Source: a virus
Taxonomy: Duplodnaviria > Heunggongvirae > Uroviricota > Caudoviricetes
Length of the DNA stretch: 33,385 nucleotides
Virus record (IMG/VR): IMGVR_UViG_2565956726_000001
Strand: one strand, 5' to 3'
Shown one piece after another: positions 7,226 through 30,679 of this stretch; positions within the stretch are counted from its first letter, which is position 1; every line of letters starts with the position of its first letter. The notes below the pieces were generated by a model. The model worked only from the letters and a program-made list of their open reading frames with translations, was not told where the DNA came from and ran no database searches. Both the position numbers and the translations under genes were made by a program.

Positions 7226-8156
7226 ATTAACCGGCTATGTATGGGATGGTTGCGCAGCGTCAGGCATGAAATTATCCAGCGTGGCAATTATGGCCCGCCT
7301 GGCTGATTTCAGTAATGACGAAGGTGTGTGCTGGCCATCGATTGAAACCATTGCCCGCCAGATTGGCGCGGGGATGAGTACAGTCAGAACGGCTATCGCA
7401 CGGCTGGAAGCAGAAGGCTGGTTAACGCGTAAGGCGCGTCGCCAGGGTAACCGCAATGCGTCGAATGTTTATCAGCTTAACGTTGCGAAGCTTCAGGCTG
7501 CGGCATTTTCTCAACTGTCAGATTCTGACCCGTCAAAATCTGACGCATCAAAATCTGACCCGTCAAAATTTGATGCGTCGAAATCTGGCAAAAAAGCGGG
7601 TTTTCACCCGTCAGAATCTGGCGGGGATCCGTCAGTAAAATCAAAACATGATCCGTCAGATAAAAAACCTTCTCGTCCGGACGCTTCGCAACCGGACACG
7701 CAGACGGCTGAACAGGATTTTTTAACTCGCCATCCTGATGCGGTTGTATTCAGCCCTAAAAAGCGCCAGTGGGGGACGCAGGATGATTTGACCTGCGCAC
7801 AGTGGCTCTGGAAAAAAATCATCGCCCTGTACGAGCAGGCTGCCGAATGTGACGGCGAGGTGGTTCGTCCCAAAGAACCGAACTGGACAGCCTGGGCAAA
7901 CGAAATTCGCCTGATGTGTGTGCAGGATGGTCGTACTCACAAACAAATCTGCGAGATGTACAGCCGCGTCAGCCGCGATCCGTTCTGGTGCCGTAACGTG
8001 CTCAGCCCGTCGAAGCTGCGGGAAAAATGGGATGAGCTTTCCCTGCGCTTATCGCCGTCCGTAAGCACGTACACCGAAAAACGCGAAGACGCGTACTTCA
8101 AAGCCAGTTACGACAACGTGGACTACAGCCAGATCCCGGCAGGATTCAGGGGGTAA
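7215..8156 (+). CDS. Replication initiator (lambda O-like; N-terminal winged-helix, internal iterons)
   Basis: 313 aa; N-terminal HTH region; iterons inside the gene are translated as repeated DPSKSDASKSDPSK; GAGGT SD. Confidence 0.8.
   Translation: MSTKLTGYVWDGCAASGMKLSSVAIMARLADFSNDEGVCWPSIETIARQIGAGMSTVRTAIARLEAEGWLTRKARRQGNRNASNVYQLNVAKLQAAAFSQLSDSDPSKSDASKSDPSKFDASKSGKKAGFHPSESGGDPSVKSKHDPSDKKPSRPDASQPDTQTAEQDFLTRHPDAVVFSPKKRQWGTQDDLTCAQWLWKKIIALYEQAAECDGEVVRPKEPNWTAWANEIRLMCVQDGRTHKQICEMYSRVSRDPFWCRNVLSPSKLREKWDELSLRLSPSVSTYTEKREDAYFKASYDNVDYSQIPAGFRG
7515..7650. repeat. Origin iterons (ori) within the O-like gene
   Basis: About six to seven ~15-16-bp direct repeats of CCGTCAAAATCTGAC-like units followed by an A-rich stretch. 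Confidence 0.6.
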
Positions 8157-12442: not shown

Positions 12443-12527
12443 AAAATAAAGGGTAATATATAACAGAAGGTTTATATAGTAAGAAGCAAGGTAGTGCTTC
12501 TAAAGGAAGTGGCTTGAGGGCTCCACT

Positions 12528-12568
12528 TATATGTTGCGGAGGCAAAGCCTCCCGCAACATATCTTTTT
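12528..12568 (+). terminator. Intrinsic terminator on plus strand (tR'-like, downstream of Q)
   Basis: 15-bp near-perfect stem ATATGTTGCGGAGGC/GCCTCCCGCAACATAT followed by CTTTTT. Confidence 0.5.
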
Positions 12569-12579
12569 CGTAAGTCAGA

Positions 12580-13662
12580 TTAGAACTGATAAACCAGACC
12601 TACAGCGACGATGTCGTCGGTATCAATACCAGCTGTTTTGGTAAACTTACTATCGTCAATTAAGTTGATTTTGTAATCAACAAAAGTGGACATGTTTTTA
12701 TTAAAGTAGTAAGTAGCACCGACATCGACATACTTGACTAAGTCTCGGTCACCATGAACACCAAGGTCTTTACCTTTTGACTGAAGGTAAGCAACAGATG
12801 GACGCAGACCGAAGTCAAACTGATATTGTGCTACTGCTTCAAAGTTTTGTGCTTTGTTTGCAATATGGTTATTACCAAAAACGGTCATATTCTGAGTTTC
12901 AGAATATGTGGTAGCCAGATAGATATTGTTCGCATCATATTTCAGGCCTGCAGCCCATACTTCCGCATTTTTGCCGGAGGCATTGAATTTGCTCTTACCA
13001 TAGGCGACCTGACCGTCAGTGCGATCTGATTTAGCATAGGTTGCACCCACGCCGAATCCTTCATACTCATAAGTAGTGGAGAAACCGAAACCATCACCAT
13101 TGGCTTCAGTTACGTCAGTGCGGTCATTTTTACCCTGATACTGAGCAGCAAAGTTCAGGCCATCGACCAGACCAAAGAAGTCGTTGTTACGATAAGTTGC
13201 AACACCAGTAGTGCGACCAGTCATGAACACATCTGTTTGGGTCCAGGTATCACCACCGAATTCTGGCAGGACGTCAGTCCACGCACCGATGTCGTATGCT
13301 ACACCGTAGTTACGGCCGTAATCGATTGAGCCGTAATCACCAAATTTCAGGCCTGCAAATGCAAGACGGGTTTTGTCTTTGGAAGAACCTTGAGATTCAG
13401 CACGGTTGCCTTTGAATTCATATTCCCACTGACCGAAACCAGTCAGTTGATCGTTGATTTGGGTTTCACCTTTGAAGCCAAGACGGGCATAAGTAGTATC
13501 ACCATCATCTGCATCATTAGAGGAGAAGTAGTGCTTGGCATTAACTTTCCCGTATAGATCCAGCTTGTTACTGTCTTTATTATAAATTTCAGCTGCCTGA
13601 GCAGACATCGCCATCAGTACTGATGCAGCTACAGCAGAAATTGCCACTGTTAATTTTTTCAT
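12580..13662 (-). CDS. nmpC: Prophage-encoded general porin (OmpC/NmpC/Lc family) with signal peptide
   Basis: 360 aa; signal peptide ending AQA-AE; terminal aromatic residue (..VGLVYQF); located between Q and the lysis genes in reverse orientation, as in DLP12. Confidence 0.9.
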
Positions 13663-14090
13663 TGTACGCCCTTTTTTTTGAACTATTATTAAAAAATGAT
13701 GTCACTGCGCGATAAATATTCATCTAATCAATGCGATTATTTCAAGATGTAAGTTTTAGTTTCTCATTTAATTTGTGAAGTAGATCTCTATTTTTATCTA
13801 AACCTTTTCTATCTAATCCTATTCATGGCTCTTGTTTGAACGAAAATAAATCTATTAGCTAATTTATATTAATGGCACTTATTTATAAGAGATCTATAAT
13901 TCTTTAGCTTAATTTAAACAAACTAAAAATAACATCGGAAATTATTCATTGGTTATTTGTTGAAGTTTTCTTATGTATTTGTGGTGGTGTTTTGAACACT
14001 CGGTGGCATTCTCACAAATATCATTTAGTAGTTTACGTACGTAAAAAATTGGTTATGCTGTTAAGAGTGGTTACTTCGTCACACAGCTTA

Positions 14091-25144: not shown

Positions 25145-25498
25145 GTGGCTGATTTCGATAACCTGTTCGATGCTGCCATTGCCCGCGCCGATGAAACGAT
25201 ACGCGGGTACATGGGAACGTCAGCCACCATGACATCCGGTGAGCAGTCCGGCGCTGTGATACGTGGTGTTTTTGATGACCCTGAAAATATCAGCTATGCC
25301 GGACAGGGCGTGCGCGTTGAAGGCTCCAGCCCGTCCCTGTTTGTCCGGACTGATGATGTGCGGCAACTGCGGCGTGGAGACACGCTGACCATCGGTGAGG
25401 AAAACTTCTGGATAGACCGGGTATCGCCGGATGATGGCGGAAGCTGTCATCTCTGGCTTGGGCGTGGCGTTCCGCCTGCCGTTAACCGTCGCCGTTGA
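25145..25498 (+). CDS. FII: Head-tail connector FII
   Basis: 117 aa, lambda FII-like. Confidence 0.9.
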   Translation: MADFDNLFDAAIARADETIRGYMGTSATMTSGEQSGAVIRGVFDDPENISYAGQGVRVEGSSPSLFVRTDDVRQLRRGDTLTIGEENFWIDRVSPDDGGSCHLWLGRGVPPAVNRRR

Positions 25499-25576
25499 AA
25501 GGGGGATGTATGGCCATAAAAGGTCTTGAGCAGGCCGTTGAAAGGGGGATGTATGGCCATACAGGGTCTTGAGCAG
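25491..25576 (+). repeat. 43-bp tandem duplication (2 copies, 2 mismatches) spanning the FII stop and Z start
   Basis: GCCGTTGAAAGGGGGATGTATGGCCATA..GGTCTTGAGCAG occurs at 25491-25533 and 25534-25576, each copy bounded by the 10-bp repeat GCCGTTGAAA. Confidence 0.9.
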
Positions 25577-26131
25577 GCCGTTGAAAACCTCAGCCGTATC
25601 AGCAAAACGGCGGTTCCCGGTGCCGCCGCAATGGCCATTAACCGCGTTGCGTCATCCGCGATATCGCAGTCGGCGTCACAGGTTGCCCGTGAGACAAAGG
25701 TACGCCGGAAACTGGTAAAGGAAAGGGCCAGGCTGAAAAGGGCCACGGTCAAAAATCCGCAGGCCAGAATCAAAGTTAACCGGGGGGATTTGCCCGTAAT
25801 CAAGCTGGGTAATGCGCGGGTTGTCCTGTCCCGCCGCAGGCGTCGTAAAAAGGGGCAGCGTTCATCCCTGAAAGGTGGCGGCAGCGTGCTTGTGGTGGGT
25901 AACCGTCGTATTCCCGGCGCGTTTATTCAGCAACTGAAAAATGGCCGGTGGCATGTTATGCAGCGTGTGGCCGGGAAAAACCGTTACCCCATTGATGTGG
26001 TGAAAATCCCGATGGCGGTGCCGCTGACCACGGCGTTTAAACAGAATATTGAACGGATACGGCGTGAACGTCTTCCGAAAGAGCTGGGCTATGCGCTGCA
26101 GCATCAACTGAGAATGGTAATAAAGCGATGA
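25553..26131 (+). CDS. Z: Tail completion protein gpZ (start in second copy of the duplication)
   Basis: 192 codons from ATG 25553; the first-copy ATG at 25510 opens only a 20-codon ORF. Confidence 0.85.
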   Translation: MAIQGLEQAVENLSRISKTAVPGAAAMAINRVASSAISQSASQVARETKVRRKLVKERARLKRATVKNPQARIKVNRGDLPVIKLGNARVVLSRRRRRKKGQRSSLKGGGSVLVVGNRRIPGAFIQQLKNGRWHVMQRVAGKNRYPIDVVKIPMAVPLTTAFKQNIERIRRERLPKELGYALQHQLRMVIKR

Positions 26132-27709: not shown

Positions 27710-28125
27710 GTTTTGCCCTGAAACTGGCGCGTGAGATGGGGCGACCCGACTGGCGTGCCATGCTTGCCGGGATGTCATCCACGGAGTATGCCGACTGGCA
27801 CCGCTTTTACAGTACCCATTATTTTCATGATGTTCTGCTGGATATGCACTTTTCCGGGCTGACGTACACCGTGCTCAGCCTGTTTTTCAGCGATCCGGAT
27901 ATGCATCCGCTGGATTTCAGTCTGCTGAACCGGCGCGAGGCTGACGAAGAGCCTGAAGATGATGTGCTGATGCAGAAAGCGGCAGGGCTTGCCGGAGGTG
28001 TCCGCTTTGGCCCGGACGGGAATGAAGTTATCCCCGCTTCCCCGGATGTGGCGGACATGACGGAGGATGACGTAATGCTGATGACAGTATCAGAAGGGAT
28101 CGCAGGAGGAGTCCGGTATGGCTGA
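27691..28125 (+). CDS. T: gpT portion of the G-T frameshift fusion chaperone
   Basis: 144-codon ORF in -1 frame relative to G, lambda T-like; expressed only as a fusion. Confidence 0.85.
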   Translation: MFDGELSFALKLAREMGRPDWRAMLAGMSSTEYADWHRFYSTHYFHDVLLDMHFSGLTYTVLSLFFSDPDMHPLDFSLLNRREADEEPEDDVLMQKAAGLAGGVRFGPDGNEVIPASPDVADMTEDDVMLMTVSEGIAGGVRYG

Positions 28126-30679
28126 ACCGGTAGGCGATCTGGTCGTTGATTTGAGTCTGGATGCGGCCAGATTTGACGAGCAGATGGCCAGAGTCAGGCG
28201 TCATTTTTCCGGTACGGAAAGTGATGCGAAAAAAACAGCGGCAGTCGTTGAACAGTCGCTGAGCCGACAGGCGCTGGCTGCACAGAAAGCGGGGATTTCC
28301 GTCGGGCAGTATAAAGCCGCCATGCGTATGCTGCCTGCACAGTTCACCGACGTGGCCACGCAGCTTGCCGGCGGGCAAAGTCCGTGGCTGATCCTGCTGC
28401 AACAGGGGGGGCAGGTGAAGGACTCCTTCGGCGGGATGATCCCCATGTTCAGGGGGCTTGCCGGTGCGATCACCCTGCCGATGGTGGGGGCCACCTCGCT
28501 GGCGGTGGCGACCGGTGCGCTGGCGTATGCCTGGTATCAGGGCAACTCAACCCTGTCCGATTTCAACAAAACGCTGGTCCTTTCCGGCAATCAGGCGGGA
28601 CTGACGGCAGATCGTATGCTGGTCCTGTCCAGAGCCGGGCAGGCGGCAGGGCTGACGTTTAACCAGACCAGCGAGTCACTCAGCGCACTGGTTAAGGCGG
28701 GGGTAAGCGGTGAGGCTCAGATTGCGTCCATCAGCCAGAGTGTGGCGCGTTTCTCCTCTGCATCCGGCGTGGAGGTGGACAAGGTCGCTGAAGCCTTCGG
28801 GAAGCTGACCACAGACCCGACGTCGGGGCTGACGGCGATGGCACGCCAGTTCCATAACGTGACGGCGGAGCAGATTGCGTATGTTGCTCAGTTGCAGCGT
28901 TCCGGCGATGAAGCCGGGGCATTGCAGGCGGCGAACGAGGCCGCAACGAAAGGGTTTGATGACCAGACCCGCCGCCTGAAAGAGAACATGGGCACGCTGG
29001 AGACCTGGGCAGACAGGACTGCGCGGGCATTCAAATCCATGTGGGATGCGGTGCTGGATATTGGTCGTCCTGATACCGCGCAGGAGATGCTGATTAAGGC
29101 AGAGGCTGCGTTTAAGAAAGCAGACGACATCTGGAATCTGCGCAAGGATGATTATTTTGTTAACGATGAAGCGCGGGCGCGTTACTGGGATGATCGTGAA
29201 AAGGCCCGTCTTGCGCTTGAAGCCGCCCGAAAGAAGGCTGAGCAGCAGACTCAACAGGACAAAAATGCGCAGCAGCAGAGCGATACCGAAGCGTCACGGC
29301 TGAAATATACCGAAGAGGCGCAGAAGGCTTACGAACGGCTGCAGACGCCGCTGGAGAAATATACCGCCCGTCAGGAAGAACTGAACAAGGCACTGAAAGA
29401 CGGGAAAATCCTGCAGGCGGATTACAACACGCTGATGGCGGCGGCGAAAAAGGATTATGAAGCGACGCTGAAAAAGCCGAAACAGTCCGGCGTGAAGGTG
29501 TCTGCGGGCGATCGTCAGGAAGACAGTGCTCATGCTGCCCTGCTGACGCTTCAGGCAGAACTCCGGACGCTGGAGAAGCATGCCGGAGCAAATGAGAAAA
29601 TCAGCCAGCAGCGCCGGGATTTGTGGAAGGCGGAGAGTCAGTTCGCGGTACTGGAGGAGGCGGCGCAACGTCGCCAGCTGTCTGCACAGGAGAAATCCCT
29701 GCTGGCGCATAAAGATGAGACGCTGGAGTACAAACGCCAGCTGGCTGCACTTGGCGACAAGGTTACGTATCAGGAGCGCCTGAACGCGCTGGCGCAGCAG
29801 GCGGATAAATTCGCACAGCAGCAACGGGCAAAACGGGCCGCTATTGATGCGAAAAGCCGGGGGCTGACTGACCGGCAGGCAGAACGGGAAGCCACGGAAC
29901 AGCGCCTGAAGGAACAGTATGGCGATAATCCGCTGGCGCTGAATAACGTCATGTCAGAGCAGAAAAAGACCTGGGCGGCTGAAGACCAGCTTCGCGGGAA
30001 CTGGATGGCAGGCCTGAAGTCCGGCTGGAGTGAGTGGGAAGAGAGCGCCACGGACAGTATGTCGCAGGTAAAAAGTGCAGCCACGCAGACCTTTGATGGT
30101 ATTGCACAGAATATGGCGGCGATGCTGACCGGCAGTGAGCAGAACTGGCGCAGCTTCACCCGTTCCGTGCTGTCCATGATGACAGAAATTCTGCTTAAGC
30201 AGGCAATGGTGGGGATTGTCGGGAGTATCGGCAGCGCCATTGGCGGGGCTGTTGGTGGCGGCGCATCCGCGTCAGGCGGTACAGCCATTCAGGCCGCTGC
30301 GGCGAAATTCCATTTTGCAACCGGAGGATTTACGGGAACCGGCGGCAAATATGAGCCAGCGGGGATTGTTCACCGTGGTGAGTTTGTCTTCACGAAGGAG
30401 GCAACCAGCCGGATTGGCGTGGGGAATCTTTACCGGCTGATGCGCGGCTATGCCACCGGCGGTTATGTCGGTACACCGGGCAGCATGGCAGACAGCCGGT
30501 CGCAGGCGTCCGGGACGTTTGAGCAGAATAACCATGTGGTGATTAACAACGACGGCACGAACGGGCAGATAGGTCCGGCTGCTCTGAAGGCGGTGTATGA
30601 CATGGCCCGCAAGGGTGCCCGTGATGAAATTCAGACACAGATGCGTGATGGTGGCCTGTTCTCCGGAGGTGGACGATGA
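28118..30679 (+). CDS. H: Tail tape measure protein gpH
   Basis: 853 aa, lambda H-like. Confidence 0.95.
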   Translation: MAEPVGDLVVDLSLDAARFDEQMARVRRHFSGTESDAKKTAAVVEQSLSRQALAAQKAGISVGQYKAAMRMLPAQFTDVATQLAGGQSPWLILLQQGGQVKDSFGGMIPMFRGLAGAITLPMVGATSLAVATGALAYAWYQGNSTLSDFNKTLVLSGNQAGLTADRMLVLSRAGQAAGLTFNQTSESLSALVKAGVSGEAQIASISQSVARFSSASGVEVDKVAEAFGKLTTDPTSGLTAMARQFHNVTAEQIAYVAQLQRSGDEAGALQAANEAATKGFDDQTRRLKENMGTLETWADRTARAFKSMWDAVLDIGRPDTAQEMLIKAEAAFKKADDIWNLRKDDYFVNDEARARYWDDREKARLALEAARKKAEQQTQQDKNAQQQSDTEASRLKYTEEAQKAYERLQTPLEKYTARQEELNKALKDGKILQADYNTLMAAAKKDYEATLKKPKQSGVKVSAGDRQEDSAHAALLTLQAELRTLEKHAGANEKISQQRRDLWKAESQFAVLEEAAQRRQLSAQEKSLLAHKDETLEYKRQLAALGDKVTYQERLNALAQQADKFAQQQRAKRAAIDAKSRGLTDRQAEREATEQRLKEQYGDNPLALNNVMSEQKKTWAAEDQLRGNWMAGLKSGWSEWEESATDSMSQVKSAATQTFDGIAQNMAAMLTGSEQNWRSFTRSVLSMMTEILLKQAMVGIVGSIGSAIGGAVGGGASASGGTAIQAAAAKFHFATGGFTGTGGKYEPAGIVHRGEFVFTKEATSRIGVGNLYRLMRGYATGGYVGTPGSMADSRSQASGTFEQNNHVVINNDGTNGQIGPAALKAVYDMARKGARDEIQTQMRDGGLFSGGGR

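Follow-up and report, generated by a model that had tools for sequence, protein, structure and literature searches.

How a ribosome-binding site comes to stand twice in a row in front of one gene, and whether the extra copy alters the supply of that gene's product, are questions raised by the junction between genes FII and Z of a lambda-like Escherichia coli prophage. An earlier note on this DNA, made from the letters alone, had described a tandem duplication there and suggested that it might lower or modulate translation of Z and hence tail completion. We analysed the junction in the window, by which we mean the whole stretch of 33,385 nucleotides, and compared it with phage records, complete bacterial genomes and metagenomic contigs. 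At a probability of about three in four, we read the 43-bp duplication as a near-neutral scar of short-repeat recombination that joined two lambda-like genomes and has a small net effect on Z.

A 43-bp tandem repeat spanning the end of FII and the start of Z

The two 43-bp units lie head to tail and are the same at 41 of 43 positions (Table 1), and the 10-bp sequence GCCGTTGAAA with which each begins is present a third time directly after copy 2. TRF returned the array as by far the top-scoring one of the window (period 43, 2.2 copies, 96% matches, 0% indels, score 178); by chance, some 4e-18 adjacent pairs of 43-mers with no more than two mismatches are expected in 33 kb. The duplication itself was thus confirmed, and the earlier note's statement that lambda has a single copy is borne out by J02459 and by the other single-copy lambda-like phage records examined.

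Table 1. Features of the FII/Z junction, in window coordinates
Feature	Position	Strand	Content and basis
FII, head-tail joining protein, 117 aa	25145..25498	+	ORF list; Pfam PF05354 Phage_attach, E=1e-19; FII in PhiR49_1 annotation
Copy 1	25491..25533	+	GCCGTTGAAA, SD GGGGG 25501-25505, ATG1 25510, Z codons 2-8; alignments to lambda and single-copy relatives
Inverted repeat born of the duplication	25507..25563	+	TGTATGGCCATA 25507-25518 / TATGGCCATACA 25552-25563; could pair both start regions in mRNA
Decoy ORF, 20 codons	25510..25572	+	MAIKGLEQAVERGMYGHTGS, stop TGA 25570-25572; translation
Copy 2	25534..25576	+	GCCGTTGAAA, SD GGGGG 25544-25548, ATG2 25553, Z codons 2-8
Z, tail completion protein, 192 aa	25553..26131	+	Pfam PF06763 Minor_tail_Z, E=4e-81; same protein as RefSeq WP_001520551.1
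Third GCCGTTGAAA	25577..25586	+	Z codons 9-11 plus A; downstream edge of duplication

The duplication leaves the FII frame intact and unchanged: the protein has the same length as in lambda, scores 71 bits against its Pfam cut-off of 26, and ends at a TGA (25496-25498) that lies inside the first 10-bp repeat. By alignment, copy 1 corresponds to the native Z start and keeps its native setting behind the FII stop. As the earlier note had it, this copy has its own Shine-Dalgarno (SD) sequence and ATG and opens a frame of only 20 codons, which extends over SD2 and ATG2 into the first 20 nt of Z, in a different frame; the 20-aa decoy peptide has no Pfam match. The true Z start in copy 2, 43 nt downstream of ATG1 and out of frame with it, was likewise upheld. 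Translated from ATG2, Z matches its Pfam profile over the full length, from position 1 to 190 of 190, and scores 272 bits where the cut-off is 23.9; PGAP calls Z from ATG2 in all carriers of the duplication, as does the annotation of the phage PhiR49_1 discussed below. The gene order annotated in PhiR49_1 and all carriers, E-FI-FII-Z-U-V-G-T-H, places Z between FII and U. For annotation, Z is to be called from the second ATG.

The length of the unit has a counterpart in phages with one copy. In single-copy lambda and all aligned relatives, GCCG(C/T)TGAAA and GCCGTTGAAA are spaced by 43 bp, the former at the FII end and the latter in Z codons 9-11, and the duplicated unit is exactly as long as this spacing. 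The joint between the copies reads GAGCAG-GCCGTTGAAA-GGGGG, with nothing inserted, and is found in carriers only. The earlier note had taken the flanking direct repeat to be a 10-bp one; it is perfect in most carriers, but in lambda and nearly all single-copy relatives it agrees at only 9 of 10 positions. The FII-end repeat is GCCGCTGAAA in lambda, SCU-172-a, AF3-b, LR-60 and the aligned single-copy prophages with CAG at Z codon 4, so the ancestral pair was usually a 9/10 match and not a perfect 10-mer.

The duplication recurs in independent prophages

Over 701 bp around the junction, the window matches Escherichia phage PhiR49_1 (PV340568) and the "star" variant of that phage at 100% identity. 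Lambda is among the 89 other phage records with a match, all of which align in two segments with 43 bp fewer. The window differs from every record recovered in these searches: over its full length the identity to PhiR49_1 is 99.3%, and the closest match is an IMG/VR contig at 99.93%. We then used a junction-specific search, with a 96-nt block as query and an E-value limit out of reach for a single copy. Among phage records it returned PhiR49_1 and the variant only. Among 5,426 complete E. coli genomes it found the junction at eight places, corresponding to eight prophages, in seven records, which represent six distinct genomes because KK19-02 was deposited twice: ST3 (Italy), CEA212U (France), KK19-02 (Germany), AF3 (UK), MSB1_4I (Australia, two prophages) and SCU-172 (USA). 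Lambda-like FII/Z junctions number about 4,600, in 3,498 of the 5,426 genomes, and about 99.8% of those in complete genomes lack the duplication.

The novel joint GAGCAGGCCGTTGAAAGGGGGATG is present in three IMG/VR contigs and two metagenome contigs as well, and in none of the GTDB species-representative genomes. A gapped pattern for other duplication lengths, with two Z starts 20-50 nt apart, recovered the same three 43-bp carriers only from IMG/VR. When the exact Z protein was looked up, ten places were found, half with a 54-nt gap between FII and Z and half with an 11-nt gap; with similar grouped places counted, about 19 of 26 encoding this same protein are duplicated and 7 are single. A search of the available literature found nothing on PhiR49_1 or the 43-bp junction; the source paper of the phage is probably Brenes & Laub 2025, cited in PMC13190303. 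The duplication is real and heritable, and the sequence that carries it is a lambda-like prophage of E. coli.

Copies 1 and 2 hold different natural alleles of Z

The two positions at which the copies differ (25519 and 25521 against 25562 and 25564) both fall within Z codon 4, which is AAA (Lys) at 25519-25521 in copy 1 and CAG (Gln) at 25562-25564 in copy 2; the Z protein encoded here is therefore K4Q relative to lambda. The earlier note had counted two substitutions between the copies. Both are present, but they are a single codon's worth of a natural Lys/Gln dimorphism and not drift. A synthetic single-copy CAG junction (89-mer) has 14 exact matches in complete genomes, and the single-copy CAG allele occurs in at least 17 complete genomes of several backgrounds, also behind other FII and Z types; strain RL465, for instance, encodes this very Z protein (WP_001520551.1) downstream of a junction with one copy. 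The AAA/CAG pair separates the copies in every carrier, and we found none with the identical copies that slippage within one genome would leave at birth. As CAG is a widespread single-copy allele, the duplication joins two alleles and its copies did not diverge afterwards; divergence after duplication was considered as the origin of the two differences and rejected on the grounds that CAG pre-exists in single copy.

The first repeat varies too, with T in most carriers and C in SCU-172-b and the loci L019 and L020. The C-AAA-T-CAG-T arrangement of these three is, from the alleles involved, the primary product to be expected if both parents were of ordinary lambda type. Single-copy junctions with T are very rare: T with AAA has one exact match in 5,426 RefSeq genomes (strain A36, with unrelated flanks), and T with CAG has none among the 5,426 RefSeq complete genomes and two in the wider collection (L032 and L035). 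This rarity leaves either a rare T parent or later conversion of the first repeat. We also observed that L026 (CP164702.1) has, at about 1480-1540 of the locus, the flanks of the single-copy AAA prophage of SCU-172 and AF3 and yet has CAG at Z codon 4; going by its sequence, it may have received a short patch by conversion from a duplication carrier in the same cell, or be a candidate for the right-hand parent.

The block moves between prophages, persists in defective ones and is apparently lost at times

Except for C/T in the first repeat, the 96-bp block is invariant among carriers, and it is flanked by no fewer than five haplotypes of FII and three of Z, one of the latter recombinant. A block without internal variation gives no handle on selection or constraint, and weak positive selection on the duplication may also be compatible with its invariance. 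In the metagenome contig L020 (OLSG01001627.1), FII has only about 60% nucleotide identity to the lambda type, and homology returns in the last ~15 nt of the gene. The joining of such a ~60%-identical FII to a lambda-type Z forms a sharp head/tail mosaic joint both in L020, which is duplicated, and in L033 (CP076279.1), which is single.

Strains with two lambda-like prophages are informative about movement. SCU-172 and AF3 have two each, of which the IS30-truncated one is duplicated and the intact one single-copy, while in MSB1_4I, a related strain, both prophages carry the duplication; in all three related strains one of the two prophages is truncated by IS30 after gene T. Comparison of MSB1_4I (L003/L011) with SCU-172 (L007/L009) and AF3 (L010/L016) revealed that the head genes are homogenised in MSB1_4I together with the duplication. 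The tract in MSB1_4I has its left edge at 25465-25471 and its right edge at 25900-25957 (window coordinates), and this pattern makes MSB1_4I a clear instance of gene conversion between prophages that share a cell. The duplication is kept in IS30-truncated, defective prophages.

Loss is suggested by L032 (OZ039802.1) and L035 (KE699608.1), which at about 1480-1540 of the locus have a single-copy T+CAG junction between flanks like those of duplication carriers; L032 equals L027 and L029 at all informative sites on both sides. These two loci are apparently precise 43-bp collapse products, and reversion would then have occurred at least twice. Single-copy T+CAG loci could in principle be ancestors of the duplication and not revertants, and recombination has shuffled the flanks, so that their SNPs single out no left or right parent. 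A block that is heritable, mobile by homologous recombination, kept in dead prophages and reversible behaves as a tolerated neutral variant.

Predicted effect on translation of Z

The 19 nt 5' of the two ATGs are the same, and so is the sequence 3' of them apart from codon 4; the calculated SD:anti-SD duplex energy is -10.7 kcal/mol at both sites. Opening the ribosome footprint is calculated to cost 13.8 kcal/mol at the decoy and 11.6 kcal/mol at Z, against ~14 kcal/mol at reconstructed single-copy junctions, and in 180-nt folds the mean probability of being unpaired, from the SD to ATG+3 of the Z start, is 0.44 in the duplicated and 0.37 in the single-copy form. No Rfam family, promoter or terminator was found at the junction. 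Since the ribosome-binding sites have equal energies and the Z start is predicted to be as accessible as before, RNA structure gives no reason for a changed Z output, and the proposal of lower or modulated Z translation is favoured by nothing computed here.

An inter-copy hairpin that might hide the starts (25507-25518 with 25552-25563, lengthened by the A>C difference) was considered separately and set aside as an effect that the folds do not bear out, as the 12-bp inverted repeat is absent from the predicted minimum-energy fold and accessibility is unchanged. A different pairing was seen in the folds of both mRNA forms: a third ATGGCCAT palindrome at 25631-25638, in the region of Z codons 26-28, pairs with the ATGGCCAT of the Z start. 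This may be a native long-range stem over the Z start, as far as the predicted folds go. The CAG allele turns the start region into a perfect palindrome of 14 nt, TGTATGGCCATACA.

The duplication lengthens the distance from the FII stop to the Z start from 11 nt in the single copy to 54 nt. ATG1, itself 11 nt past the FII stop, would probably be used about as the lambda Z start is, yielding a 20-aa out-of-frame peptide, and the ribosomes on the decoy would cross SD2 and ATG2 and end 17 nt inside Z. With d as defined by Tian & Salis 2015, the FII-Z distance changes from d = +11 to d = +54, and the decoy-Z distance is d = -20. In their work re-initiation is small beside de novo initiation and declines for d < -10 (PMC4538824), and in E. 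coli +38 nt leaves almost no termination-reinitiation (Huber et al. 2023; PMC10666635). Given the reduced re-initiation that the published models predict at d = -20 and d = +54, Z would most likely depend on ribosomes that initiate independently at SD2, the identical second site. Occlusion of the Z start by ribosomes on the decoy, together with the more distant FII stop, would cost at most a modest part of Z. On the basis of thermodynamic prediction and these general models, we expect little net change in Z output.

Both Z and FII are essential in lambda (PMC10695390, where CRISPRi polarity is a caveat). PhiR49_1 was deposited as a complete phage genome with the laboratory host ECOR13; the propagation recorded in these metadata, from which we infer infectivity, implies that a phage with the duplication makes enough Z.

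Relation to known systems

The FII/Z duplication belongs to a familiar class, that of tandem duplications at short direct repeats. As in other such duplications of E. coli and phages, the unit equals the ancestral spacing of the repeats (43 bp), the product has the form repeat-X-repeat-X-repeat, and precise collapse is possible (L032, L035). It differs from them in an ancestral repeat that was usually imperfect (9/10) and in copies that carry different natural alleles, which point to an exchange between two genomes. Recombination joints at module boundaries of lambdoid phages are described by the mosaicism model of Hendrix and Hatfull. The duplication resembles such joints in lying exactly at the head/tail boundary between FII and Z, in a block that travels with the Z side, and in L020, where FII is only ~60% identical and homology resumes near the end of the gene; but classical joints are sharp and unduplicated, whereas this one left a ribosome-binding site and the first eight codons in tandem.

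The decoy has its own SD and a 20-nt overlap and its ribosomes must cross the Z ribosome-binding site, as with overlapping short ORFs and coupled genes (PMC4538824, PMC10666635), but Z has a strong SD of its own and no need of coupling, and typical coupled overlaps are 1-8 nt long. Termination-reinitiation operates at stop-start distances of about -8 to +10 nt (PMC10666635, PMC4538824), and both d = -20 and d = +54 lie outside this range. Unlike a regulatory upstream ORF, the decoy gives no sign of regulation, of ligand or stalling sensing, or of conservation beyond one lineage.

Origin of the duplication and alternative readings

We propose that out-of-register recombination, or template switching, at the short direct repeat GCCG(C/T)TGAAA produced the duplication. 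An unequal exchange between two different lambda-like genomes would have placed the AAA allele in copy 1 and the CAG allele in copy 2, and it is the simplest route because either codon-4 allele is found in prophages with one copy; SCU-172, AF3 and MSB1_4I are examples of strains that harbour two lambda-like prophages. The scar would then have been tolerated, moved by homologous recombination and now and then lost by precise collapse. Duplication within one genome followed by conversion of one copy is a possible variant of this history. Improbable in our estimation is slippage in a single genome followed by two point mutations in copy 2. Replication slippage between short direct repeats is the commonest route to tandem duplications, most carriers have three perfect GCCGTTGAAA repeats, and strain A36 has a single-copy T+AAA junction whose two 10-bp repeats match perfectly; yet both differences lie in one codon and recreate the widespread single-copy CAG, two specific hits that are very unlikely by chance, and the lack of other differences in the 96-bp block, bar the first-repeat C/T, argues against enough time for drift. 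There is practically no chance that the true sequence is single-copy and the duplication an artefact of assembly or sequencing, the outcome that the earlier note had set as the one to undo its claim. Short tandem repeats are prone to mis-assembly and the PhiR49_1 record contains at least one probable homopolymer error (a split H gene), but comparison with related prophages excludes the artefact because many independent assemblies carry the same junction: it is identical across laboratories, countries and sample types (complete chromosomes, viral contigs and metagenomes), it sits on differing flank haplotypes, and the two differences between the copies are not what a collapse or expansion artefact would make.

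That the decoy is a maintained upstream ORF tuning Z output, and so adjusting the stoichiometry of tail completion, is unlikely. Such control could work by occlusion that damps Z, or by a relay from FII to Z through an unfolded Z start and backward re-initiation; we are quite doubtful of a functional relay or attenuator in which ribosomes from FII would load the decoy, open the Z start and terminate a little way into Z, making Z a set fraction of upstream traffic by occlusion together with backward re-initiation. What speaks for adaptive control is the placing of a full-strength decoy ribosome-binding site exactly at the native position of the Z start relative to the FII stop, the d = -20 geometry, at which re-initiation is reduced but still occurs (PMC4538824), the predicted pairing of the Z start with ATGGCCAT at 25631-25638, which a passing ribosome could open, and the status of the duplication as the majority form among large contigs encoding the exact Z protein. 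Against this, the decoy is missing from about 99.8% of lambda-like junctions in complete genomes, persists in IS30-truncated prophages in which tail genes are useless, has apparently reverted at least twice, and leaves the predicted accessibility of the Z start as it was; the IMG/VR pattern search revealed no other duplication lengths or convergent versions, and the block offers no variation for a test of constraint. A programmed +1 frameshift at the end of the decoy (UCU UGA), which would give an N-terminally extended Z isoform, is very improbable. The frameshift site of prfB (RF2) has the form AGGGGG-N3-CUU-UGA. The decoy resembles it superficially, as it contains AGG GGG, ends in UCU UGA G with the UGA in frame, and lies in frame -1 relative to Z, with the productive frame at +1, such that a +1 shift would create an in-frame fusion. 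It lacks, however, the defining features: there is no slippery CUU-U, a P-site UCU would be unable to re-pair on CUU, and the SD-like AGGGGG is 15 nt upstream of the would-be shift codon in place of 3 nt. Nor was an Rfam frameshift element found, and the sequence amounts to a duplicated ribosome-binding site. Compared by eye, the end of the decoy (AGG GGG AUG UAU GGC CAU ACA GGG UCU UGA) does not match the RF2 motif, and an RF2-like site was discarded.

Read as a recombination scar, the locus would be a clean natural example of a duplicated ribosome-binding site left by short-repeat exchange at a head/tail module boundary, and a handy marker for recombination among co-resident prophages. It also offers a ready-made natural construct for the effect of an overlapping decoy ORF with an identical ribosome-binding site on a downstream start. 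If the decoy did tune Z dosage, the locus would be a small case of expression evolution through duplication of a ribosome-binding site; a relay or attenuator, if real, would be a naturally evolved retuning of the dose of a tail-completion protein and could explain the predominance of the duplication among prophages with this Z allele.

Other features of the prophage

The window begins inside the ORF of an IS3-family transposase (54-944, 296 aa), which is abutted by the minus-strand ORF of a truncated integrase (826-1302, 158 aa). In PhiR49_1 the integrase at this place is complete, and the identity of that phage to the window begins only at window position 987; to judge from these ends, the prophage copy in the window is probably unable to excise. 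The tape-measure gene H is intact in the window (28118-30679, 853 aa), with a G-run near 28406-28412, and the PhiR49_1 record gives H as two overlapping CDSs (27991-28290 and 28257-30551), which suggests a 1-nt length difference or an error in that record, probably in a homopolymer. Within the homologue of replication gene O, a 15-mer, TCTGACCCGTCAAAA, is repeated in tandem 4.3 times at 7524-7587 (also scored as a 30-mer repeated 2.1 times), and these repeats are probably origin iterons. At ~12580-13725 (12455-13597, minus strand, in the PhiR49_1 record), an OmpD-like porin gene is annotated in PhiR49_1 between Q and the lysis cassette, and further right that record has an omptin protease gene and Lom fragments; by their annotation, the porin, the protease and the Lom fragments are moron-type cargo.
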